Of a DNA stretch of 64,000 nucleotides, positions 1,881-63,004 are shown in pieces. Source of the DNA: Candidatus Yonathbacteria bacterium RIFCSPLOWO2_01_FULL_43_27 (GTDB taxonomy: Bacteria > Patescibacteriota > Minisyncoccia > Phycocordibacterales > UBA1550); contig MHUV01000006.1 in assembly GCA_001823545.1 (NCBI GenBank), forward strand, positions 27,437 through 91,436. Reading direction: 5' to 3'. The notes beneath the pieces were generated by a model. That model was not told the origin of the DNA and did not search any database. It worked only from the letters and a program-made list of their open reading frames with translations. The position numbers and the translations under genes were made by a program. Numbering within the stretch: position 1 is the first letter of the stretch; each line of letters opens with the position of its first letter.

Positions 1881-3530
1881 ATGAAGCAATCCGAAGCCCT
1901 CGCTATCCTCAAAATGGGACATAATGCGTTTATAACAGGCGCCGCAGGAAGTGGTAAGACACACCTCTTGAACGAATACATTCGCTATCTCCGCGAACAC
2001 AATGCACAAATCGGCATCACTGCTTCAACGGGTATTGCGGCGACTCACATGGGAGGCACGACCATTCACGCATGGTCGGGACTTGGTATCAGGGACACGC
2101 TGAGCGCATACGACCTCGAAGCGCTTGAGGAAAAACCGTATCTCTGGAAACGTTTCGAAAATGTGCACGTTCTTATCATTGATGAAATTTCCATGCTTCA
2201 TCATTATCGCTTGGACCTCGTGGATAAAATTGCACGTTCATTCAAAAGAACTGACAAACCGTTTGGCGGTATGCAAACGATTCTCTGTGGTGATTTCTTT
2301 CAGCTTCCCCCTGTATCACGCGCATACGAACGGCCCGCTGAGTTCTGCTATCACGCAGAGGTATGGGATAAGCTTGATCTCAAGATATGCTATCTCGAAG
2401 AACAACATCGTCAAGAAGATGGCGCGTACCTCGACATTCTAAACGCAATTCGTGACAATGCTGTTTCGCCAGAAACTACGCGCATCCTCGCCACGCGCAA
2501 GAATCAAAAACCAGAAAGTATTGCGGAGCCAACAAAACTCTACACCCATAACACTGATGTCGACACAGAAAATATGTGTGAACTTGAAAAAATTCCCGGA
2601 GAAACTTTTGAATACACCATGACATCAAAAGGAAGGGAAAATCTCGTTGCTATTCTCAAAAAAAGCTGTCTGGCACCAGAAAAACTTTGTCTCAAGAAAG
2701 GTGCGCGCGTAATGTTCGTAAAAAATAATTTTGAAGAAAAGTATGCGAATGGCACACTCGGTATTATAGAAGAATGTACCTCGCTCGGCATCAAAGTACG
2801 TCTCGCTAATAAGCGTATTATTGATGTAAAACCAACAAGTTGGCGAATTGACGAGGATGGCAAAGTGAAAGCAGAAATCACCCAATACCCCCTTCGTCTC
2901 GCATGGGCTATCACGATTCACAAAAGCCAAGGCATGAGCCTCGACGCCGCCTTGGTCGACCTCTCGCAATCGTTTGAAAAAGGTATGGGGTACGTCGCGC
3001 TTTCGCGCGTGCGCACACTAGGAGGACTTTCCCTGAAAGGAATGAACTCTAACGCCCTTGAGGTTAATCCTGAAGTTACTCTTTTTGATATACAATTTCG
3101 CGAGGCATCACAAAAGCATACCAAGAACCTTCACGCAAACTCTCCAGAAGAAATTGCGCGTAGTCATCAGGAGCATCTTAGAAAAGTAGCACCGCAAAAG
3201 AACGTGAAAGCAAAAAAAGTAGACACTACCGAGGAAACAATACGTCTCGTACGTGAAGGAAAAATGCTAAAAGAAATTGTCGCAATACGAGCACTTAAAC
3301 TAGGCACTATTTTGGACCATTTAGAAAAAATCAAAGAAAATGACCCCACTGTAGATCTCTCCCCACTCGAAAAAAATATGCCAAAAGCACGACTTCAAAA
3401 AATTATTCAAGCACTCAATAAGAGCGGTATGCATGGTGGCGTGTATTTACTCACCCCCACAAAAGCACTCCTCAGTAAAGATATTTCATTCGAAGAAATC
3501 CGCATCGCACGATTGTTATTAAAAAAATAA
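1881..3530 (+). CDS. Pif1/RecD-family ATP-dependent DNA helicase (AAA_30 P-loop) with C-terminal HTH-like extension
   Basis: Motifs GAAGSGKT, ITASTGIAA, LIIDEISM, GDFFQLPPV, TIHKSQG. Confidence 0.85.
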   Translation: MKQSEALAILKMGHNAFITGAAGSGKTHLLNEYIRYLREHNAQIGITASTGIAATHMGGTTIHAWSGLGIRDTLSAYDLEALEEKPYLWKRFENVHVLIIDEISMLHHYRLDLVDKIARSFKRTDKPFGGMQTILCGDFFQLPPVSRAYERPAEFCYHAEVWDKLDLKICYLEEQHRQEDGAYLDILNAIRDNAVSPETTRILATRKNQKPESIAEPTKLYTHNTDVDTENMCELEKIPGETFEYTMTSKGRENLVAILKKSCLAPEKLCLKKGARVMFVKNNFEEKYANGTLGIIEECTSLGIKVRLANKRIIDVKPTSWRIDEDGKVKAEITQYPLRLAWAITIHKSQGMSLDAALVDLSQSFEKGMGYVALSRVRTLGGLSLKGMNSNALEVNPEVTLFDIQFREASQKHTKNLHANSPEEIARSHQEHLRKVAPQKNVKAKKVDTTEETIRLVREGKMLKEIVAIRALKLGTILDHLEKIKENDPTVDLSPLEKNMPKARLQKIIQALNKSGMHGGVYLLTPTKALLSKDISFEEIRIARLLLKK

Positions 3531-3637
3531 TAGCTCGTAGTACTCTATTGGCGTCCAAACCTAATACCTATGATCTTGTAGCTGAGATTAGGTATTTAAT
3601 TAATAACCCACTAAAATAAAATTCTCGCCATCGCTAT

Positions 3638-3671
3638 CGACGTATAATATACTATAGTATATTATACGTCG
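3638..3671. repeat. 34-bp perfect palindrome CGACGTATAATATACTATAGTATATTATACGTCG, copy 1 (candidate operator)
   Basis: Exact self-complementary sequence, identical to 4247-4280. It carries TATAAT on both strands. Confidence 0.9.
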
Positions 3672-3686
3672 GGGGTGTAAAAAAAA

Positions 3687-4232
3687 TTATATTTTAAAAG
3701 TCTTTCTAAGTATGTCATCACCCTCGATACGTTCAGCGAGTATAAGTTTGATGTCCTTCCTCACATTAAAACATCTGCCTACAAAATCAATTTCTTCTTT
3801 GCAAGGAAATGGGGTAATGAAAACAGATTTTTGGTACTGAACACACCCAAGTTTTTTAAGAGCAAAATTTATTGAACGTCGCGCCTGTTTTTTATTTTCT
3901 GAGACATCAAACATAACAATACGCCATTTTCCATCCCATTTATCTTGATGGGTGATCTTCATTACTTCAAGTTTATGACGTAAAGCTTTTTCTTCTCCTT
4001 TTGTGGTTAAAATAAAACCATCCTCTCCCACATTTTTCCTCATAACGAGTCCTTGTTTTTCAAGACGAATAAGGGATTTTTTAATTCTATCTCGCTCAGG
4101 GGTATTTCTCGGTTTAAAATATTTAAAAAGCTGTACCGCATTAGGCATCGTAACCGCCACTGCAACTACCCCCGTAGCTAATATCAACGAAAGTATCATT
4201 TCTGCTATTTCTCCCTTATTGTATTTTTTCAT
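3687..4232 (-). CDS. Membrane-anchored winged-helix protein with C-terminal Cas2/PaaX_C-like domain (putative transcriptional regulator)
   Basis: N-terminal TM helix, wHTH-like LIRLEKQGLV...FILTTKGEE, then WRIVMFDVSE...ARR...LKKLGCVQYQKSVF, which resembles the Cas2/PaaX C-terminal pattern. The family assignment is by motif only. Confidence 0.45.
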   Translation of the reverse strand: MKKYNKGEIAEMILSLILATGVVAVAVTMPNAVQLFKYFKPRNTPERDRIKKSLIRLEKQGLVMRKNVGEDGFILTTKGEEKALRHKLEVMKITHQDKWDGKWRIVMFDVSENKKQARRSINFALKKLGCVQYQKSVFITPFPCKEEIDFVGRCFNVRKDIKLILAERIEGDDILRKTFKI

Positions 4233-4241
4233 ATTAATTTT

Positions 4242-4285
4242 AATATCGACGTATAATATACTATAGTATATTATACGTCGATATT
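4242..4285. repeat. Same 34-bp perfect palindrome (4247-4280), copy 2, extended to 44 bp by ATAT flanks
   Basis: Identical to 3638-3671. It lies 15 bp upstream of the ATG of the 3687-4232 gene and overlaps its likely -10 region. Confidence 0.9.
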
Positions 4286-4346
4286 GTTATTTAATTTTAC
4301 AAAATAGGTAGACGAAATACCACACTGTAATACACCTATTGAAAGA

Positions 4347-5243
4347 TTATTTTTCTGCGCCACGTAATGTAGCTATGCGCTCTTGTATCGGCGGATGCGT
4401 ACTGAAGATCTTTGACATAAAAGAAGCAGTGCCACCATTTTTCAAAGGATTCGCAATATACAAATGTGCCATTGCAGTATTCTTGCGCGCAAGTCCGTGA
4501 GGGTATGCAGAAATTTTCTCTAGCGCGGATGCAAGTCCTTCGGGATAGCGAGTAAGAAGTGCACCCGAAGCGTCGGCAAGAAATTCACGCTTGCGCGAGA
4601 TCGCAAGATGGATAAGTTGTGCAACGATCGGCGCGAGGATTGCAAGAACAATACCCGCGATCATCAGAATTGCGCCCGCACGATTGTCACGATCGCGCCC
4701 TCCACCTAGATGCGATGTTCGTAAGGCCAGATCCGACATAATAGCGATAAAACCAACGAGTACAACCACCACGGTCGCCAGAAGTGTGTCGCGGTTACCG
4801 ATATGCGAAAGCTCGTGTGCAATTACTCCCTCAAGTTCATTTTTATTGAGTGTTGCAAGAAGTCCCGTGGTAACCGCAATTGCCGAATGCTCTTTGTCGC
4901 GCCCTGTCGCAAATGCATTAGGCGAATCATCGTGGATGATGTAAGTCTTTGGCATAGGAAGCCCCGCGGTAATAGAGAGATTTTCAACAGCGTTCCATAA
5001 ATAGAAATACTGTTCGCGTGTTATGGGCTGTGCGCCAGACATTTTGATAACCAACGTATCTGAATACCAATAACTCCAGATATTCATACCAACACTGAAC
5101 AGCACTCCAACATAGAGAATGAGCGGATTTTGATACACATAGCTAAACCCCCATGTGATAGCAATCACTACGACAAAAAACACAGCCATAAGAAGCCATG
5201 TTTTGTGCTTATTTTGATCTTGGTGCGTATAAAGGGTTGCCAT
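4347..5243 (-). CDS. htpX: Zinc metalloprotease HtpX (M48 family)
   Basis: HELSH (HExxH) motif, multiple TM helices, STHPP...ERI C-terminal motif. Confidence 0.85.
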   Translation of the reverse strand: MATLYTHQDQNKHKTWLLMAVFFVVVIAITWGFSYVYQNPLILYVGVLFSVGMNIWSYWYSDTLVIKMSGAQPITREQYFYLWNAVENLSITAGLPMPKTYIIHDDSPNAFATGRDKEHSAIAVTTGLLATLNKNELEGVIAHELSHIGNRDTLLATVVVVLVGFIAIMSDLALRTSHLGGGRDRDNRAGAILMIAGIVLAILAPIVAQLIHLAISRKREFLADASGALLTRYPEGLASALEKISAYPHGLARKNTAMAHLYIANPLKNGGTASFMSKIFSTHPPIQERIATLRGAEK

Positions 5244-6383: not shown

Positions 6384-8054
<1,671 letters not shown>

Positions 8055-8357
8055 TTATTTGATTATTGCTAAAATATTCGACTCACTGAGAATAAAAAAT
8101 TCTTCTCCATCAATTTTAATTTCATCGGGACCATACTTTGAGAATAAAATTTCATCGCCAACGTTGACCGTAGGTTTAATGACAACCCCTGCGTCTGTCG
8201 TGCGTCCGAGTCCCACCGCTACCACAGTACCTTGTTCGGGACGTTCTTTTCCTGCGGTATCAGGAATAATAATACCACTCTTTGTTTTAGTCGTGGGCAC
8301 AAGGGCGCGTACCAAGACGCGATCACCAAGGGGAGTAATTTTTCGTTTTGTACTCAT
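8055..8357 (-). CDS. groS: Co-chaperonin GroES (10 kDa)
   Basis: PLGDRVLVR...GIIIPD...GTVVAVG, immediately upstream of groEL. Confidence 0.95.
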   Translation of the reverse strand: MSTKRKITPLGDRVLVRALVPTTKTKSGIIIPDTAGKERPEQGTVVAVGLGRTTDAGVVIKPTVNVGDEILFSKYGPDEIKIDGEEFFILSESNILAIIK

Positions 8358-8462
8358 AGATTAATTAATGGTTATTATATTTGAACGTAATAATGTAATA
8401 TGTGCGGGATATCTAGAAAGTATCCGCTTTCCTAGTATATGCGCACGGTAAAAGCTTGCAAC

Positions 8463-8491
8463 TTGACTAAAGAACGTAATGGGTGTATAAT
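8463..8491 (+). promoter_or_regulatory. Consensus-like sigma70 promoter TTGACT-N17-TATAAT
   Basis: TTGACT at 8463-8468, 17-bp spacer, TATAAT at 8486-8491. It points into the small GC-rich ORF. Confidence 0.5.
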
Positions 8492-8567
8492 ACTACATAG
8501 ATACGAAAGGTCCTATTCTATCGGGCACTAGTTCTGGTCAATAATGACCCAACAATTAGGAGGTTTT

Positions 8568-56475: not shown

Positions 56476-56975
56476 CTACCTAAATGCAATTGCTTTACTT
56501 CTTGATAATCGAGGAACTTTTTCAATGATAGCACAGCCTATCGACACTTCGTATGCACTGCGATAGCCTAGTGATTTTCGGTACTTGTGATTCATCGTAT
56601 GAAGCATAGATTGGAATGTTGCATCGGGTACTTTTGCAAGGTCTGTACCTTTGGGAAGAAACCAGCGGCGTATGAGCCCAATACTACTCTCTACATGCGG
56701 TTTCTGCCAAGGACTGCCTGGAGTGCAGAAGTAAGTTGGGATACCAAATTGTTCGTGCTGTTGATTCTCAATACCATTGTCCATAGTCCATGTGGTAACT
56801 GCAACTTTTTTCTGTATAGATTTCATAGAGGTGACCATGACGCTTGGTTTCTTGTTCGCAATGAGTTTCCCTGTGAGTAAATGCGTCGCTGGAACTACGG
56901 TCAGATGTCCCACTATCTTGGAATGGAGAAAGAGGGTCAGGTACCCTTTCCATCTTACTTCTGATATACTAACCG
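56476..56975 (-). mobile_element. IS30-family transposase, C-terminal (DDE/rve) fragment only: a remnant truncated by insertion of the adjacent element
   Basis: FCTPGSPWQKPHVESSIGLIRRWFLPKGTDL matches the IS30 transposase C-terminal motif (SPWQRG.NENTNGLLRQYFPKGTD). The N-terminal ~200 aa, including the HTH, is missing. The ORF's first ~15 codons are the reverse complement of the RAYT start region. Confidence 0.6.
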
Positions 56976-56976
56976 A

Positions 56977-57651
56977 ATGCCACGCATTACCCGTACCGAC
57001 ATCGGTAATCATTGCTACCATGTCATCAATCGCGCCAACGCTCGACTCCCCATTTTCTTTGCAGAACAGGACTACCTTTTATTTGAGGAAGTTTTGGAAG
57101 AAGCACAAAAGAAGTTTTCTATGAGGATCCTTGCGTATTGTCTTATGCCAAATCATTTCCACCTAGTACTCTATCCCATAAATGACGGCGATATGGGGAA
57201 GTTTATGCAATGGCTCACACTCACTCATACCCAGCGCTGGCACCAAGCGAACAATACAAAAGGAAGCGGACACCTCTATCAAGGGAGATACAAATCTTTT
57301 TTAATACAAGACGACAAACACCTTCTTTCCGTCATCCGCTATGTAGAGCGAAATTCGTTGCGTGCAAAATTAGTTAAAAAAGCAGAGAATTGGGGTTTCT
57401 GCAGTTTGGCGCGACGTCTTTCAGAGCACCCAGCAAAAAAGAAACTTTTGTCAGCGTGGCCGATACTTGAGCCCGAAGACTATCTTTCATTTGTTAATAT
57501 ACCTCAAACAAGAGAAGAAGAAGAACTCATCAGGGGGTCTGTTGTAAAAGGGAAGCCATTTGGCGCAGATGCATGGGCTATGAAAATGATCAAGAAGTTT
57601 GGGCTGGAAACTACTGTCCGACCCACAGGGAGACCCAAAAAGGGTACCTGA
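56977..57651 (+). mobile_element. IS200/IS605-family Y1 (HUH) transposase, RAYT-like
   Basis: HUH motif PNHFHLVL and the catalytic-Tyr motif RYVERNSLRAKLV (compare Y.ERNPVRAGLV of REP-associated tyrosine transposases). Confidence 0.7.
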
Positions 57652-57659
57652 CCCCCTTT

Positions 57660-57812
57660 ACTCCCCGTACCCGCGCCTGCATCAAGGACTAAGTCCCCTT
57701 TTTTGATTTTCAGATTGTCTTTGACCGAACCGAGAAGGTCCTGATACGGCCTAAGCTCGTTCAGAACATCGTATACTGCAAAATATTTTCTCCAAAAATC
57801 ATCCTTGGTCAT
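57660..57812 (-). pseudogene. Duplicated 5' fragment (first 51 codons + upstream promoter region) of the methyltransferase gene at 53423-54127
   Basis: Encodes MTKDDFWRKYFAVYDVLNELRPYQDLLGSVKDNLKIKKGDLVLDAGAGTG, then diverges. Including the upstream region, this is a ~250-bp near-identical direct repeat of 53988-54240 at 57663-57930. Confidence 0.8.
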
Positions 57813-57889: not shown

Positions 57890-57990
57890 TATTATCCCCC
57901 ATTCTACCAAATCCCCCCATAAAAACATAGAGGGTATGGAATGGGGTGGGAATTTATAGAAAAATATGGTATTTCGAAAGGATCTTTTAG
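57890..57990 (+). repeat. Dispersed intergenic repeat element, copy 2 (modules D + B + C + E)
   Basis: TTTTCTCCCCTATTCCCCTATTATCCCCC + ATTCTACCAAA + CCCCCCATAAAAACATAGAGGGT...GGTATTTCG. Confidence 0.6.
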
Positions 57991-58090: not shown

Positions 58091-59959
58091 CTACATCTTT
58101 TCCGGAACCTTGATGCTCATCATCGACAATCCTTTTTTGATTACCATGGACACGCCTTTGATTAAAGCGATTCTTGATTCACGGAGTTTTACATCTTCGG
58201 TTCGGAGGATAGAGGTCTCGTTGTAAAAGCTGTTGAAGAGCGACGCTAATTCTTCTAAATATCCACAGATATAATTAGGAGAATCGGTCTCTTGAGCTTT
58301 TGCGATAACATCAGGGAACGCCATAAGCTTCTTTGCAAGCTCAAATTCGCTCTTGTTCACGAAGGATATATCGTTCATCTCGAGCTTTCCGAGATCAATC
58401 TCACCAAAAGCTTCTTTCAGCTTTTCCATGATGGAATTGATTCGAACATACGAGTATTGCAGGTAGACCGCGCTCCCTCCTTCCAAGTCCAACATCTTGT
58501 CCCAATCAAAAGAGATGTTCTTGGTTCTTGACTGGCGCAAATCATTGTAGATAATTGCTCCAACACCGACGATTTCAGCAACTTTGTCCAGTTCCTGGGG
58601 GTCAGTATTCGGGCTCTTCGCAAGCAAAATCTCTTTTGACTTGCTTACAGACTGAGAAATGAGATCTTCCAGTTCGATCAATGTCCCCTTCCTCGTGGAC
58701 ATCTTCTTCCCATCGCGTAAGATCATTCCGAAGCCTATGTGCTTTGCCTCTACACCTTCGGGTAAGTAGTCAGCGCGCCTGCCTAATTCAAACAATTGTT
58801 TGAAGTTCAGCTCTTGCTCACTACCTACCACATAAAGAATGGAATCTGAGTCGAACGTGTTGACCCTGAACTGAAGTGTTGCCAGATCTCTCGATAAGTA
58901 GAGACTTGAACCATCTTGCTTTCTAAGCAAGAAGGACGGGAGATCCCCCATTTGATCCACAATGACTGCTTCTGATGACTCGTCTTTTCTGCAGAGCCCT
59001 TTTCCCGTGCACTCATCGACTAGCTTGTCTGCCTGCTCGGTGAAATAACTCTCGCCGATACTGAGATCAAATTCAATTCCGAGCTTTTTATAAACACGCT
59101 CAAAATCTTCGAGACTCAAGTCTCTGAATCGCTTCCAAAGAGCGACCAATTCGGGATCTTTTTTCTCGAGACGCGCAAACAGCTCACGAGCGTTGTCTTT
59201 AACCTCAGGATGTTCTTCTGAAAATTGGTGGAACTTAACATAGAGATCTTTGAGTTCTACGAGAGGGTTTTCCGCGATTCTCTTCTCATCTCCCCACTCC
59301 TTGTAAGCATAAATGAGAGAGCCGAACTGCGTTCCCCAATCGCCCAGATGATTGTCTCTGATAACACTATAGCCAGTCTCGCGATAAATGTTTGCGAGAG
59401 CCTGTCCTATAATCGTTGATCTCAAATGGCCGACACCGATCGGCTTTGCGATGTTTGGAGCAGAGTAGTCAATGATGGCAACTTTGCCGGCATTAATGTT
59501 ACTCTCTCCATACCGCTCTCCAAGTTCAAGGATTTTTGAAAGAATTTCCTGATAGAGCTTTTCTTTATGTGTTTCCACATTCACAAAAGCTCCTACAAGA
59601 GAGGCATCCTTAATCAAATCCATTCGATGCTCGTTTATGCCATCAACGATTTTTTTTGCAAGTATATTCGGCTTTTCATCAAGTTTTTTTGCAAGACGAA
59701 AAACCTCAATTGCAAAATCTCCAGATATATGAGATGGGGGTACTGACAATTCTATTTCCTCAACATCTTGAGTGCCTAGAGACTCCCTTACCACCTCCTC
59801 TACCTCTTTTTGCAATTTTACTGACAGATAGCTACCAAAATCAACGTAATCACGATGCTCCTTTTCTTTTCTAATCCTTTCCTGGACAGTGTTTACAGAC
59901 TCAATTACCTCAAGTTTGTATTTTTCAAATTCGCTCTGTTTTTGCTGATTGATTTCCAT
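58091..59959 (-). CDS. argS: Arginine--tRNA ligase
   Basis: SAPNIAKPIGVGHLRSTIIG (HIGH-like region), DHLGDWGTQFG, KMSTRKG (KMSKS). Confidence 0.9.
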   Translation of the reverse strand: MEINQQKQSEFEKYKLEVIESVNTVQERIRKEKEHRDYVDFGSYLSVKLQKEVEEVVRESLGTQDVEEIELSVPPSHISGDFAIEVFRLAKKLDEKPNILAKKIVDGINEHRMDLIKDASLVGAFVNVETHKEKLYQEILSKILELGERYGESNINAGKVAIIDYSAPNIAKPIGVGHLRSTIIGQALANIYRETGYSVIRDNHLGDWGTQFGSLIYAYKEWGDEKRIAENPLVELKDLYVKFHQFSEEHPEVKDNARELFARLEKKDPELVALWKRFRDLSLEDFERVYKKLGIEFDLSIGESYFTEQADKLVDECTGKGLCRKDESSEAVIVDQMGDLPSFLLRKQDGSSLYLSRDLATLQFRVNTFDSDSILYVVGSEQELNFKQLFELGRRADYLPEGVEAKHIGFGMILRDGKKMSTRKGTLIELEDLISQSVSKSKEILLAKSPNTDPQELDKVAEIVGVGAIIYNDLRQSRTKNISFDWDKMLDLEGGSAVYLQYSYVRINSIMEKLKEAFGEIDLGKLEMNDISFVNKSEFELAKKLMAFPDVIAKAQETDSPNYICGYLEELASLFNSFYNETSILRTEDVKLRESRIALIKGVSMVIKKGLSMMSIKVPEKM

Positions 59960-59983: not shown

Positions 59984-60050
59984 GAGGACAGCCACCATTG
60001 TTTTGTCTTTTGTGTATTCTAAGATATTATTATTCCCCCATTCTACCAAA
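59984..60050 (+). repeat. Intergenic repeat modules A + B upstream of argS (copy 1)
   Basis: GAGGACAGCCACCATTGTTTTGTCTTTTGTGTATTCTAAGATATT ... CCCCCATTCTACCAAA; about 90% identical to 61964-62056. Confidence 0.7.
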
Positions 60051-60052: not shown

Positions 60053-60214
60053 ACTACACAAAATATACTATTGACAGAACGCAAAATCTTGTTATTATTC
60101 ATAATAGAAAGAAAGTATGTTCTAATAAATAATCAAGGTCTAAAACCTTGTTCATATATATAGCGGAATTGAACGATTGTCGCCGACAATAAAAAATAAA
60201 AAAGGGAGGAGAAG

Positions 60215-60676
60215 ATGCCCACGGAGGATATTTCTTTGTATCGACACCATATCGGCTGTGACATAAACACTCTTGTGGCAGAAGTATACGATCTGGTAAA
60301 GGATGTAACAAAATGCCCACAGGTTTCTTCTCGAGTCAAAGATTTGGAAACACTGAGAAAGAAGATGGTACTCAAAAATACTCATGACATCTTCTCTATC
60401 GACGACGTATATGGGATACGCATCATAGTTACTTCTATAGATGAAGTATACGCCGTCCTTGAGAGAATCTCTCGAGTATTCGAAGGATTCCTCGACCACG
60501 ATTACTTCAAGAACGCAAAGGCGTGCCCGAGCGTCGACGGAAAGTTCTTACGACTGGTGCAATTCGTTGCATACAAAAACAAAGTTCCGTTTGAGGTGCA
60601 GGTCACAACAGCATCTTGTCACGAAACCAACGAATCACTCCATGCGAGATATCATCGGAGAAAATATGGTTCGTAA
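60215..60676 (+). CDS. Small alarmone synthetase (RelA/SpoT-synthetase-domain nucleotidyltransferase; possible toxSAS-type enzyme)
   Basis: Substrate-binding motif SRVKDLETLRKK (RxKxxxS/TxxxK), G-loop DDVYGIRIIV (DxxGxRII), and catalytic strand FEVQVTT (compare EIQIRT). Confidence 0.75.
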   Translation: MPTEDISLYRHHIGCDINTLVAEVYDLVKDVTKCPQVSSRVKDLETLRKKMVLKNTHDIFSIDDVYGIRIIVTSIDEVYAVLERISRVFEGFLDHDYFKNAKACPSVDGKFLRLVQFVAYKNKVPFEVQVTTASCHETNESLHARYHRRKYGS

Positions 60677-60699
60677 ACCCATGATGACTGGCTCATGCC

Positions 60700-61287
60700 T
60701 CATTGTGGGTTTTCTTTTTTACATAACTCTGATATTTCAAAATAGTCTTTCACTATTTGATGCTCCCCAAGTGCAGATTTTAAAATATTGCCGATTTCTG
60801 CATAGTACCACCGATAATCATCGGGTGTACCACGGAAATGAGATATCACATTCTCATTTTTTTCTCTCAACGCGCTGAAGTATGCCTGCAAATTAGACAT
60901 CTTATCGATTGCGACAATGATGAGTGCGTCTGGTGATGCTGTTTTTATTTTTTCTAAATACGCCATCTTTTTTTCTTTCCATGTTGCATATTCTTCTTCC
61001 TCGACGAGACTCACCTCGTCTACAAGTTGTGCTATATGTTGACCAAATTCTTCTTGCAGATGAGCAAGAGAAACATCGGAACAATCTTCGAGCACGTCAT
61101 GAAGAAGTGCTGCGGTAATTATTCTTTCATCGTCTGTGTACTCGGAAAGACTGAGTGCTACCAATACAGGATGCACTATGTATGGTACTCGACCGCCTTT
61201 GCGGTACTGCCCATCATGTTTTTGAGCTGCGAAATATAGAGCTCGTTTGATAGAGGAATGTTCTTTTTTCATAGAGATCACGGGCAC
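60700..61287 (-). CDS. Small alarmone hydrolase (HD domain, SpoT/Mesh1-like (p)ppGpp/(p)ppApp pyrophosphohydrolase)
   Basis: RKGGRVPYIVHPVLVA and AALLHDVLED (HD motif) match the SpoT hydrolase domain. 10-nt overlap with the upstream PP-loop gene. Confidence 0.8.
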   Translation of the reverse strand: MPVISMKKEHSSIKRALYFAAQKHDGQYRKGGRVPYIVHPVLVALSLSEYTDDERIITAALLHDVLEDCSDVSLAHLQEEFGQHIAQLVDEVSLVEEEEYATWKEKKMAYLEKIKTASPDALIIVAIDKMSNLQAYFSALREKNENVISHFRGTPDDYRWYYAEIGNILKSALGEHQIVKDYFEISELCKKENPQ

Positions 61288-61946
61288 AGTAATCGCATAC
61301 GGGAAATGTATTCCCGGCAGAGAGGAAGTGATTCTTCCCAGAAGCCCAGCGCCTTTTCTGGATCAAAAGGAACCGCACTGAATACAGACTTTCCTTCCAG
61401 TGAATTTGAGCTGACTCCGCATTGTTCCAATATGTCCATTACTTCTTCTTTTGTTTTCTTCACGATCGGTGTGTGGTACGTAATACCATATTCCTTCAAA
61501 AAATCTCTTGTGAGTTCACAAAAACGGTCTTGTTGTTCAATGTATCTGTCTTCTTTTGCTTGATACCCAGAATATCCAGTAGCGATATCGTGAATACCTT
61601 TCTCAAGACAATACAAAACTGCGTCTGTATGAATTGCAAGGGCGAGCGCTATGGGATACACCACGTGTGTTTCATTCGTTTTTTCGATTGCAAGTTTTCT
61701 GACCAGATAAGGATTCACCTTCGTCACCTGAAAGGAGTCAATACGATCTGGAGAAAAATTTATTAGCTCTTTATGGCGTATACTTGAAGGAGAATCTCCG
61801 TTGGGTCCTGTTATGCCAGGATATTCTGAGTACGTGAATAATTGTACATCGTAACTGGCACGTACCATTTCTATGGCTGTAGCTGAGGAATCCTTTCCGC
61901 CGGAAAACAGAACAAGTACTTTCTTGCGAATATCTTTGTTCTTCAT
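61278..61946 (-). CDS. PP-loop ATPase of the adenine-nucleotide alpha-hydrolase superfamily, QueC-like
   Basis: PP-loop VLVLFSGGKDSSAT. QueC-like IATGYSGYQAKEDRY (compare ITGV..DFSGYPDCR). It lacks the C-terminal CxxC zinc cluster of canonical QueC. Confidence 0.55.
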   Translation of the reverse strand: MKNKDIRKKVLVLFSGGKDSSATAIEMVRASYDVQLFTYSEYPGITGPNGDSPSSIRHKELINFSPDRIDSFQVTKVNPYLVRKLAIEKTNETHVVYPIALALAIHTDAVLYCLEKGIHDIATGYSGYQAKEDRYIEQQDRFCELTRDFLKEYGITYHTPIVKKTKEEVMDILEQCGVSSNSLEGKSVFSAVPFDPEKALGFWEESLPLCREYISRMRLLCP

Positions 61947-61963: not shown

Positions 61964-62056
61964 GAGGACAACCATCATTGTTTTGTCTTTTGTGTATTCT
62001 AATATATTAAAATTCCACATTTCTCTTCCCCTTATAATCCCCCCCATTCTACCAAA
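61964..62056 (+). repeat. Intergenic repeat modules A + B (copy 2), upstream of the PP-loop gene
   Basis: GAGGACAACCATCATTGTTTTGTCTTTTGTGTATTCTAATATATT ... CCCCCATTCTACCAAA. Confidence 0.7.
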
Positions 62057-62158: not shown

Positions 62159-63004
62159 ATGCAGATGAAAAAGCAAGGGTTTGGAGGCTTAACAATCTTA
62201 CTCTTCATGATAGTAGCTCTTATGAGTGGGTGCGCAAGCACCACGGAGCTCGGCAAGGGCGGAAGCATGGCAACAGGGGCCGCGGGTAATAACGGCACTC
62301 AGGGTGAGTCGAAACAGCTCGTCAAATGCGACAAGATAATTGCGACCGTCGAAATCGACGAACCCACATCCGGCGCAGATGCCGTATCATGGGTAATGCT
62401 CGCACAGCAACTCGGGGTACCCTCAGACACGCGACCGCTCATCAATCTCATGGTAGCCCAGTCAGGGTGTTTCAGAGTTGTCGACCGCGCAGCGGGACTC
62501 AGAGCGGCAAAGCGCGAACATGAACTCGCCGAAGCCGGACTGACGCGAAAGAACAGCAGTATAAAGAAGGGCAACATCGTCGAGGCCCAGTATACCCTTG
62601 TACCGAAAGTAGCCATCTCTCAGCAGAACTCTTCAGGAAGAGGGCTTGCCGGCCTTGCGGGATTCATCCCCATCCCGGGAGCGAGTATGATCGGCGCATT
62701 GGCCGGAGGTGTCTCGTCCAAAACGAGCGAGGCACAGGTGGTAGTGACCATCATCAACAACGAGACCCTCGTTCAGGAAGGTGTCGCCGAGGGTAGCGCA
62801 ACCGCAAAAGACTATAGCTTCGGCGGAGGGCTTCTCGGCGTAGGCGGTAATGGTATCGGCGGTGCCGGCATAGGGGCGTGGAACAAAACACCCCAAGGAA
62901 AGGTCGTCATTGCGGCCTTCATGGATTCATGGAACAAACTCGTTCCGATGGTCAAAGACCTGCAGGTTCCACAACAGGCCTCAACGACCACGGGGAAGCA
63001 CTGA
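62159..63004 (+). CDS. CsgG-like lipoprotein (curli-secretion-channel family pattern); GC-rich relative to its surroundings
   Basis: Signal peptide + lipobox LMSGC. GLAGLAGF...AQVVVTIINNETLVQEG resembles the CsgG core (GG.G.....Q..V.LR.VN..TGE.L). SD AAGGAGG upstream. Confidence 0.45.
   Translation: MQMKKQGFGGLTILLFMIVALMSGCASTTELGKGGSMATGAAGNNGTQGESKQLVKCDKIIATVEIDEPTSGADAVSWVMLAQQLGVPSDTRPLINLMVAQSGCFRVVDRAAGLRAAKREHELAEAGLTRKNSSIKKGNIVEAQYTLVPKVAISQQNSSGRGLAGLAGFIPIPGASMIGALAGGVSSKTSEAQVVVTIINNETLVQEGVAEGSATAKDYSFGGGLLGVGGNGIGGAGIGAWNKTPQGKVVIAAFMDSWNKLVPMVKDLQVPQQASTTTGKH

Follow-up and report, generated by a model that had tools for sequence, protein, structure and literature searches.

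The PP-loop enzyme YcfA of Erwinia amylovora (PDB 9kq6) works on GTP, GDP or GMP, whose C6 carbonyl it adenylates before attaching L-cysteine, and the pyridoxal phosphate (PLP) lyase YcfC acts after it, giving 6-thio-GTP (PMC12494993). In described 6-thioguanine clusters YcfA has a NUDIX hydrolase as its partner, YcfA together with YcfB is said to be both necessary and sufficient for the product, and the TgsC and TgsE proteins are MutT-like (PMC7994395). Among alarmone enzymes, the synthetase FaRel with its small alarmone hydrolase (SAH) antitoxin, ATfaRel, is a described precedent of type IV (PMC7229694). These two unconnected fields, RelA/SpoT alarmone enzymes and the YcfA thioamide chemistry that underlies the drug and virulence factor 6-thioguanine, are joined by a locus of Candidatus Yonathbacteria bacterium RIFCSPLOWO2_01_FULL_43_27, which encodes a mini RelA/SpoT-type synthetase, an SAH and a PP-loop enzyme. 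It lies in a stretch of 64,000 nucleotides (nt) of contig MHUV01000006.1 (positions 27,437 to 91,436), which we call the window and within which all its coordinates are given.

We find that the three genes form a conserved module of Patescibacteria, and we read it, tentatively and with a probability of roughly 45%, as a module for guanine-nucleotide derivatisation and alarmone metabolism whose three enzymes would share one nucleotide pool. All three parts are known superfamilies. In the literature searched, the combination, the minimal synthetase clade and the lyase-less Patescibacteria branch of YcfA are undescribed, and no paper links an alarmone synthetase with the candidate phyla radiation, QueC or thioguanine. 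An earlier prediction, made by a model from the sequence alone, had already regarded an operon of a hydrolase and a PP-loop ATPase as an arrangement not described before, and the same literature agrees with it.

Three adjacent genes conserved in Patescibacteria

The scan of open reading frames (ORFs) and their translations returned the three ORFs of the original prediction with every motif quoted in it, and the argS gene that it had placed next to them:

58091-59959, minus strand: argS (TIGR00456, 1.8e-138)
60215..60676, plus strand: mini small alarmone synthetase gene, 153 amino acids (aa), from the ORF scan
60677..60699: spacer of 23 nt that separates the stop codon of the synthetase gene from that of the convergent hydrolase gene; it lacks a terminator
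60700..61287, minus strand: small alarmone hydrolase gene (HD_4), 195 aa from GTG 61287 or 190 aa from ATG 61272
61278..61946, minus strand: YcfA-family PP-loop gene, 222 aa, from the ORF scan

The synthetase and hydrolase genes are convergent in the window, not bicistronic. The hydrolase gene had been said to overlap the PP-loop gene by 10 nt in translational coupling; the overlap holds if GTG 61287 is the start and disappears with ATG 61272, which lies 5 nt past the PP-loop stop codon and gives a 190-aa product, as long as the homologues are. With either start, the coupling of the two genes is tight. The domains of all three proteins score above the Pfam gathering cut-offs (RelA_SpoT 47.3 bits against 27, HD_4 66.8 against 27.2, and QueC 29.8 against 22).

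About 60 loci were assembled from the surroundings of homologues, a genome scan and a metagenome scan with the synthetase alignment. Collapsing their synthetases at 95% identity left 32 non-redundant lineages, with the following layouts:

PP-loop gene then HD gene, convergent with the synthetase gene (the layout of the window): 17 lineages
PP-loop gene then NUDIX gene, convergent with the synthetase gene: 4 lineages
Co-directional operon of PP-loop, HD and synthetase genes, in this order: 3 lineages
HD gene convergent with the synthetase gene, on a contig that ends too early for a PP-loop gene to be seen: 5 lineages
Synthetase gene then histidine phosphatase gene, PP-loop gene not seen: 2 lineages (L057 and L055)
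Contig ending 11 nt past the synthetase gene: 1 lineage

A phosphohydrolase adjoins the synthetase in 31/32 lineages, the exception being the contig that ends 11 nt past the gene, and a YcfA-like gene is present in 24 of the 25 lineages that could be judged, a conservation of layout that upholds the more general part of the original prediction, a nucleotide-signalling or metabolic module. The convergent layout is found in 26/32 lineages, with stop-to-stop gaps of -10 to 81 nt, and a co-directional one in 5/32 (three with HD and two with His_Phos_1). The adjoining hydrolase is mostly of the HD type, with a NUDIX protein or a histidine phosphatase in some lineages; the PP-loop gene is followed by a NUDIX gene in 4 lineages and by a non-homologous HD hydrolase gene in 20. 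Such replacement of one hydrolase by another, non-homologous one (HD, NUDIX, histidine phosphatase) around a single synthetase is unusually clear.

In L057 (positions 3043-4211), the synthetase gene is followed by a co-directional His_Phos_1 gene (4e-33) and no YcfA-like gene was found, and in L055 it is followed by a co-directional histidine phosphatase gene on a contig that stops 290 nt beyond the synthetase. A more distant synthetase, L061 (2765-3687), has a co-directional NUDIX gene next to it with no YcfA-like gene found, and another, L062, is convergent with an HD gene. The minimal unit appears to be the synthetase plus any phosphohydrolase. The NUDIX proteins of the variants are MutT/NudB-like, which likens them to TgsC and TgsE, and the Nudix box is intact in L001. 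L056 carries an additional NUDIX gene (6751-7185, minus strand) directly upstream of its PP-loop and HD genes; the two hydrolase types can thus stand together in one module.

Compared with the window copies over 18 loci, the synthetase has a mean identity of 51%, the hydrolase of 58% and the PP-loop protein of 61%, the three diverging in parallel. All-against-all clustering of the flanking ORFs brought out no fourth conserved gene, and the flanks are unrelated housekeeping genes (SecDF, ScpAB, cytidylate kinase, aminoacyl-tRNA synthetases). The three genes are a true conserved module of Patescibacteria.

A PP-loop protein of the YcfA family

The original prediction had described the PP-loop protein as QueC-like without a zinc cluster. 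It is a PP-loop protein and lacks the zinc site (the SGGKDS motif is present, there is no Cys cluster, and only C113 and one C-terminal Cys are conserved in the family), but a QueC-like function did not stand, as sequence, fold and active-site residues all point to YcfA. A profile of 27 family members matched YcfA (9kq6) in the PDB over its full length at 1.3e-17 (positions 5-209 on 8-212); the next match was at 8e-4, and QueC lay at 0.16-0.68. By BLASTP, the window protein and YcfA are 28% identical over 213 aa (E 1e-15). The AlphaFold2 (AF2) model, with a predicted local distance difference test score (pLDDT) of 86.8, was superimposed by Foldseek on YcfA with a template modelling (TM) score of 0.83 and a root-mean-square deviation of 2.2 Å, compared to TM scores of 0.57 for QueC and 0.49 for Cap9, with TtuA, TilS and Cap9 all below QueC. 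Full-length homology, fold and PP-loop are thus shared with YcfA of the Erwinia amylovora ycf cluster, the TgsB of staphylococcal tgs (PDB 9kq6, 9kq7, 9kq9 and 9kqd), of which a tetradecameric ring and a 6-Cys or 6-thio guanine nucleotide product are features.

We mapped the YcfA residues established by mutagenesis onto the alignment of the 27 family members. The ATP-binding D19, Q129 and E183 correspond to D19, Q129 and E184 of the window protein (27/27 members), and the guanine-binding F132, E134 and Q135 to Y135, E137 and Q138 (27/27 members). The cysteine-binding R18 is K18 in the window protein (18 R and 9 K in the family) and Y128 is Y128 (26/27 members), so that 8/8 catalytic, guanine-binding and cysteine-binding residues of YcfA are conserved. 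The interface residue L173 of YcfA, in contrast, is acidic (E or D) in the Patescibacteria family. By alignment, model and analogy, the PP-loop protein belongs to the YcfA family and is predicted to adenylate O6 of a guanine nucleotide.

The canonical marks of QueC are the zinc site C(x)8CxxCxxC and the motifs YxQxHxxE, VPxRN and YPDC, as listed in a 2026 survey of the QueC family that reports no cluster with RelA/SpoT neighbours (PMC13329287). None of them occurs in the PP-loop translation or in the family alignment, and no TGT-like, QatA, QatB or QatD partner stands alongside the gene. With the NCBIfam model of QueC (TIGR00364) the protein reaches 26.5 bits, where the cut-off is 150.3, and only the broad Pfam family PF06508 passes (29.8 against 22). 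The PP-loop ATP pyrophosphatase fold and the SGGxDS motif are common to this protein and to QueC, QatC and Cap9 of the type IV cyclic-oligonucleotide-based antiphage signalling system (CBASS), but it lacks their zinc and sequence motifs and matches their fold much more weakly than that of YcfA; motifs, model scores and fold together rule out an identity as QueC, Cap9 or QatC. Public records call the homologues '7-cyano-7-deazaguanine synthase' (P0032, P0039, P0053, P0062, P0077 and P0122). In view of the YcfA match and of the absent QueC motifs and zinc site, these labels are probably wrong, and the naming of the family is probably a systematic misannotation.

The YcfA-like family is larger than that of the synthetase, with at least 113 clusters. 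The pattern used for the PP-loop protein in the genome scan is generic and yields no estimate of prevalence. Among the matches listed, YcfA-like genes outside Patescibacteria are the distant ones of L008 (Planctomycetaceae), L009 (Amycolatopsis) and L010 (Legionella), and a YcfC-like PLP enzyme of the class-V aminotransferase fold is encoded near the gene in 3/3 of them. These are probably uncharacterised thiopurine-type clusters. The L008 locus additionally encodes a large HD protein, a DNA methylase and an integrase, and L010 a LuxR regulator, a HAD hydrolase, a 2-thiouracil desulfurase (TudS), a flavin reductase and a haem-oxygenase-like enzyme.

A minimal RelA/SpoT synthetase core

The synthetase, which is 100% identical to OHA82515.1 (Candidatus Yonathbacteria), contains the motifs R40-x-K42-xxx-T46-xxx-K50, D64-VY-G67-I-R69-II and E127-V-Q129-VT-T132. 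The Pfam RelA_SpoT profile covers residues 39-148 with its positions 1-110 of 113 (2.9e-12, 47.3 bits), and the protein is a complete RelA/SpoT synthetase core with no further domain. R40, K42, K50, D64, G67, R69, E127 and Q129 are unchanged across 17-20 members of the family. The assignment to RelA/SpoT synthetases is confirmed by these matches, and the loss of catalytic residues, which had been named as an observation that would speak against it, was not seen in the alignment. Judged by its residues, the synthetase is catalytically intact, and it is predicted to transfer pyrophosphate from ATP onto the 3'-OH of a nucleotide.

The AF2 model (pLDDT 87.9, predicted TM score 0.82) has the full five-stranded synthetase core, which Foldseek matched to Rel, RelP and RelQ with a probability of 1.00 and query-normalised TM scores of 0.64-0.72, the top matches being the synthetase domains of Rel from B. 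subtilis and S. aureus (Foldseek E 5e-9, 29% identity). Kinship with the toxSAS families was judged by the same Foldseek ranking and by comparing the synthetase profile with the PDB. The profile matched long Rel at 2e-10, RelP and RelQ at about 1e-5 and FaRel2 at 0.018, while CapRel and Tas1 gave no sequence match at E <= 1; in the ranking by fold, CapRel occupied places 29-33, behind Rel, RelP and RelQ, and Tas1 was not found. By sequence and modelled fold, long Rel enzymes are nearest to the synthetase.

The catalytic motifs are those of long Rel (B. subtilis 6yxa and 8acu, S. aureus 7oiw) and of RelP and RelQ. Unlike these enzymes, the protein has only 153 aa, without regulatory domains or RelQ-type extensions, and the E-x-Q-x-R-T of Rel and small alarmone synthetases (SAS) reads E-x-Q-x-T-T. 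The acceptor site appears to differ as well: the G-loop GYxSLH of Rel and SAS is gapped in the HMMER alignment to B. subtilis Rel and reads GKxLRLxQF, with a pLDDT of 65 in the model. With an acceptor loop so diverged and modelled at low confidence, the acceptor nucleotide is not readable from the sequence.

Relatives of the synthetase are few (20 clusters at 90% identity) and all of about 135-175 aa, and the clade sets the smallest natural RelA/SpoT synthetase core at about 150 aa. An exhaustive profile search of 1.84 billion representatives gave 16 matches at E < 1e-30 and 31 at E < 1e-10, beyond which the matches turn into long RelA/SpoT homologues (RSHs) of about 700 aa, aligned over the synthetase domain. 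The long RSHs nearest to the profile include one from Candidatus Gracilibacteria, a lineage of the candidate phyla radiation. A search of viral contigs found no relatives of the synthetase, and a phage origin was rejected on this ground.

An intact small alarmone hydrolase

The hydrolase, which had been identified as an HD-domain protein of the SpoT/Mesh1 type, bears the motifs RKGGRVPYIVHP and LLHDVLED and matches Pfam HD_4 at 2.4e-18 (66.8 bits) and the N-terminal region of TIGR00691 at 6e-29. Among solved structures it is closest to three small hydrolases that stand alone, 7qoe, 7qoc and 4yf1 (2e-23 to 1e-19), with the hydrolase domains of long Rel (about 1e-14) and Mesh1 scoring behind them. 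Across 16 homologues, H34, H58-D59, E62-D63, D123-K124 and N127 (numbering of the 190-aa form) are invariant. The identification was correct: this is, by its sequence features, an intact SAH with a single HD_4 domain, predicted to remove the 3'-pyrophosphate from (p)ppGpp or (p)ppApp. It has the metal and catalytic residues of stand-alone SAHs (7qoe, 7qoc/7qod, Listeria Lmo0812 4yf1 and Mesh1), and the match reaches their C-terminal helices. It differs from them in the translational coupling of its gene to one of the YcfA type, and in that a NUDIX or histidine phosphatase gene takes its place in some lineages.

A proposed pathway on one guanine-nucleotide pool

Like ycfA with ycfB, the PP-loop gene is directly followed by the gene of a nucleotide pyrophosphohydrolase, and the known pairing of YcfA with NUDIX in 6-thioguanine formation has its equivalent in the PP-loop and NUDIX genes of 4 lineages. 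This speaks for a shared pathway, as do the conservation of the module, the YcfA assignment and a synthetase and hydrolase that are intact and most like (p)ppGpp enzymes. In the pathway that we propose, the YcfA-family enzyme would adenylate a guanine nucleotide at its O6 carbonyl at the expense of ATP, and a thiol (L-cysteine by analogy) would displace AMP to give a 6-S-substituted or 6-thio guanine nucleotide. The mini-synthetase would pyrophosphorylate a purine nucleotide of the same pool at its 3'-OH, with ATP as the donor, yielding (p)ppGpp or a C6-modified analogue. The hydrolase, HD/SAH-type here and NUDIX or histidine phosphatase elsewhere, would strip the phosphate decoration, whereby the product would be kept transient or the next intermediate released. 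That all three enzymes work on one guanine-nucleotide pool is, in our estimate, somewhat short of an even chance.

Several observations weigh against this proposal. The lysines K169 and K180 of YcfA grip the GTP triphosphate from the adjacent subunit (PMC12494993), and neither is conserved in the Patescibacteria family, in which the first position is M, K, I, V or N and the second is N in 26/27 members; with these lysines lost, GTP as the actual substrate is not assured. The Tyr that stacks on the acceptor in Rel and SAS has no clear counterpart in the synthetase alignment, so the acceptor of the synthetase need not be guanine. Unlike the ycf and tgs clusters, which include a YcfC/TgsA PLP lyase, the Patescibacteria loci lack it in cis: phmmer with two such enzymes found none at any of these loci or in the 64-kb window, which means that the sulfur chemistry may differ or stop at the adduct. 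The parts also occur separately. YcfA-like genes at about 50% identity are found without synthetase and hydrolase (L022 and L023), and in L057 and L061 the synthetase is accompanied by a hydrolase alone, so the parts can work apart and their linkage might be regulatory, with no shared substrate. The module departs from ycf clusters in further respects: the partner hydrolase is usually of the alarmone-type HD family, a RelA/SpoT synthetase is linked and the host is a candidate-phyla-radiation bacterium of reduced genome.

A narrower form of the proposal, which we consider unlikely but realistic, is that the module makes a new modified alarmone such as 6-thio- or 6-S-cysteinyl-(p)ppGpp. Either the synthetase product would be the substrate of the YcfA-like enzyme or the reverse would hold, and the hydrolase would reset the system. 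If true, the ultra-small, episymbiotic Patescibacteria would use a modified alarmone as a private signal or, alternatively, as a 3'-blocked and for that reason self-safe antimetabolite aimed at their host. Little is understood of the metabolism of candidate-phyla-radiation bacteria and of how they interact with hosts, and the module hints that their chemistry may include antimetabolites or signals. With three small soluble proteins and defined candidate substrates, a new nucleotide is cheaply testable.

Alternative explanations

The original prediction had named a toxSAS-type toxin-antitoxin pair as one candidate, and a growth-arrest or abortive-infection switch of this kind seems to us improbable. 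The synthetase would make a toxic alarmone or pyrophosphorylate tRNA, the hydrolase would serve as a type IV antitoxin, and the YcfA-like enzyme would be an accessory or a sensor. A hydrolase of interchangeable fold beside nearly all synthetases is what would be expected if their product must be held in check, and the pair of FaRel and its SAH antitoxin sets a precedent (PMC7229694): as in FaRel/ATfaRel of Cellulomonas marina, a small synthetase sits beside a small HD hydrolase in a compact module of two or three genes. The rarity and patchiness of the family (16 clusters at E < 1e-30 among the 1.84 billion representatives), its unrelated chromosomal contexts, at times near PemK, NYN or transposase genes, and a PADLOC match of the synthetase to the defence candidate PDC-S33 (8.7e-11) point the same way. 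That match is partial, however, spanning just 100/349 profile positions, and the synthetase shows no specific sequence kinship with FaRel or other toxSAS families, being nearest to long Rel. Nor is the organisation that of a bicistronic or tricistronic toxSAS operon: the layout is mainly convergent, in the window as in the 26 lineages, the hydrolase gene is coupled to the YcfA-like gene rather than to that of the synthetase, and the third gene is of the YcfA type, not AT2faRel. All three genes are kept together, including a metabolic-type enzyme at about 60% identity, and the search of viral contigs found no copies. The logic of toxSAS systems fits the module; membership of the toxSAS family does not.

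We also doubt that two separate functions share the locus, the PP-loop and hydrolase genes forming a YcfA/YcfB-type thiopurine pathway and the synthetase exerting ordinary (p)ppGpp control. In this case, (p)ppGpp would regulate the thiopurine pathway or protect the producer, for example by inhibiting purine salvage enzymes. Such a division would agree with YcfA and a NUDIX protein being necessary and sufficient for 6-thioguanine (PMC7994395), with the PP-loop and NUDIX pairs of 4 lineages and the NUDIX, PP-loop and HD series of L056, and with the MutT/NudB-like character that the NUDIX proteins share with TgsC and TgsE; the synthetase and hydrolase resemble standard (p)ppGpp enzymes, and the synthetase is usually a separate convergent transcription unit. 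It is harder to square with the lack of a YcfC/TgsA-type PLP enzyme, an exporter or a regulator in cis, with a hydrolase that is alarmone-type HD and not NUDIX in most lineages, with synthetase-hydrolase pairs that are found without a PP-loop gene, and with the single operon of all three genes in three lineages.

A housekeeping stringent response, in which a long Rel would be encoded in two pieces in a reduced genome, one gene for the hydrolase and one for the synthetase, next to an unrelated PP-loop neighbour, is very unlikely: there are good matches to long Rel/SpoT for the synthetase profile and for the hydrolase, a Candidatus Gracilibacteria long RSH is among those nearest to the profile and the operon has a promoter and leader in common with argS, but the family is very rare for a housekeeping role, the hydrolase stands closer to the small hydrolases of stand-alone type than it does to Rel and is replaced by a NUDIX protein or histidine phosphatase in some lineages, linkage to a YcfA-like gene in 24/25 lineages is unexpected for an unrelated neighbour, and synteny with other genes is not shared.

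Promoters and leaders

The proposed three-enzyme module would be expressed from two transcription units, to which the following elements are assigned:

60071..60098, plus strand: promoter-like site of the synthetase gene, TTGACA and TATTAT separated by 16 nt, with TG before the second hexamer
60176..60190: perfect palindrome ATTGTCGCCGACAAT (ATTGTCG-C-CGACAAT) in the synthetase 5' leader, ending 24 nt before the ATG
60203..60210, plus strand: strong Shine-Dalgarno sequence GGGAGGAG, ending 4 nt before the synthetase ATG
61964..62016, minus strand: 5' leader of the PP-loop/hydrolase operon, near-identical to the argS leader at 59984-60036
62041..62056, minus strand: TTTGGTAGAATGGGGG, a promoter-like element of the extended -10 type (TGn-TAGAAT), ahead of the PP-loop/hydrolase operon

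The leaders of the PP-loop/hydrolase operon and of argS, each about 50 nt long, share an exact 27-mer (59996-60022 and 61976-62002), where none is expected by chance. They may have arisen by duplication of a promoter with its leader, or they may form a regulatory RNA common to both units. A search of this shared leader and of the synthetase leader against Rfam at E <= 1 gave only a sub-threshold chance match inside argS, and a riboswitch or other known RNA was rejected for want of a family match. The element TTTGGTAGAATGGGGG recurs without mismatch on the minus strand, three times in the window where 0.04 copies would be expected, and precedes a 102-aa ORF at 57504-57812 (57896-57911), argS (60035-60050) and the PP-loop/hydrolase operon (62041-62056); it may be the strong promoter type of this organism. 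The promoter-like site of the synthetase gene, a consensus match only, agrees with the consensus at 11/12 positions and is the best of the region, which contains 8 such sites compared to 6.2 expected from shuffles.

With promoter and leader common to argS, the PP-loop/hydrolase operon is probably constitutive, and the sequences suggest a steadily expressed hydrolase operon with the synthetase under separate control. We propose that the operon is transcribed from the promoter and leader of the argS type and the synthetase gene from its own promoter. The convergent synthetase and hydrolase genes are only 23 nt apart, and head-on transcription across this gap could make the two units interfere.

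The palindrome is real, though it lies at 60176-60190, and not at about 60183-60197 as first stated, and its distance of 24 nt from the ATG also differs from the earlier figure. The operator role that had been suggested for it is unsupported. The 64-kb window contains 25 palindromes as good as this one, a frequency of roughly 1 in 2.6 kb, so ATTGTCGCCGACAAT is not beyond chance, and its sequence is not conserved upstream of about 35 homologues, many of which carry some palindrome 40-57 nt before the start codon.

Neighbouring genes

A CsgG-like lipoprotein, unusual in a candidate-phyla-radiation genome, is encoded directly upstream of the PP-loop operon on the opposite strand (62159-63004, plus strand; Pfam CsgG 7.1e-10). 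On the other side of the module, about 2.5 kb away, are remnants of mobile elements (56476-57651), which comprise an IS200-like Y1 transposase (56977-57651; Pfam Y1_Tnp 2.9e-16) and, overlapping it on the opposite strand, a 181-aa ORF that may be a fragment of an integrase or transposase. In other lineages, the module is sometimes found beside PemK, NYN or transposase genes.

Over the flanks of 18 related loci and the window with its argS, aminoacyl-tRNA synthetase genes (argS, tyrS, cysS, and class I and II lysS/aspS-type) make up about 7-8 of 123 flanking ORFs. This is about twice our own background estimate and statistically weak, and a tRNA link through these neighbours was set aside.

Histidine kinases with seven transmembrane segments (HisKA_7TM, HisKA and HATPase_c) flank the module in four or five lineages and may be a regulatory link to it. 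They are encoded at 3096-4814 in L045, 2002-3627 in L056, 8427-10124 in L021 and 1-1428 in L039, and L026 has them on both sides (3141-4853 and 6868-8520), one directly upstream of the PP-loop gene.

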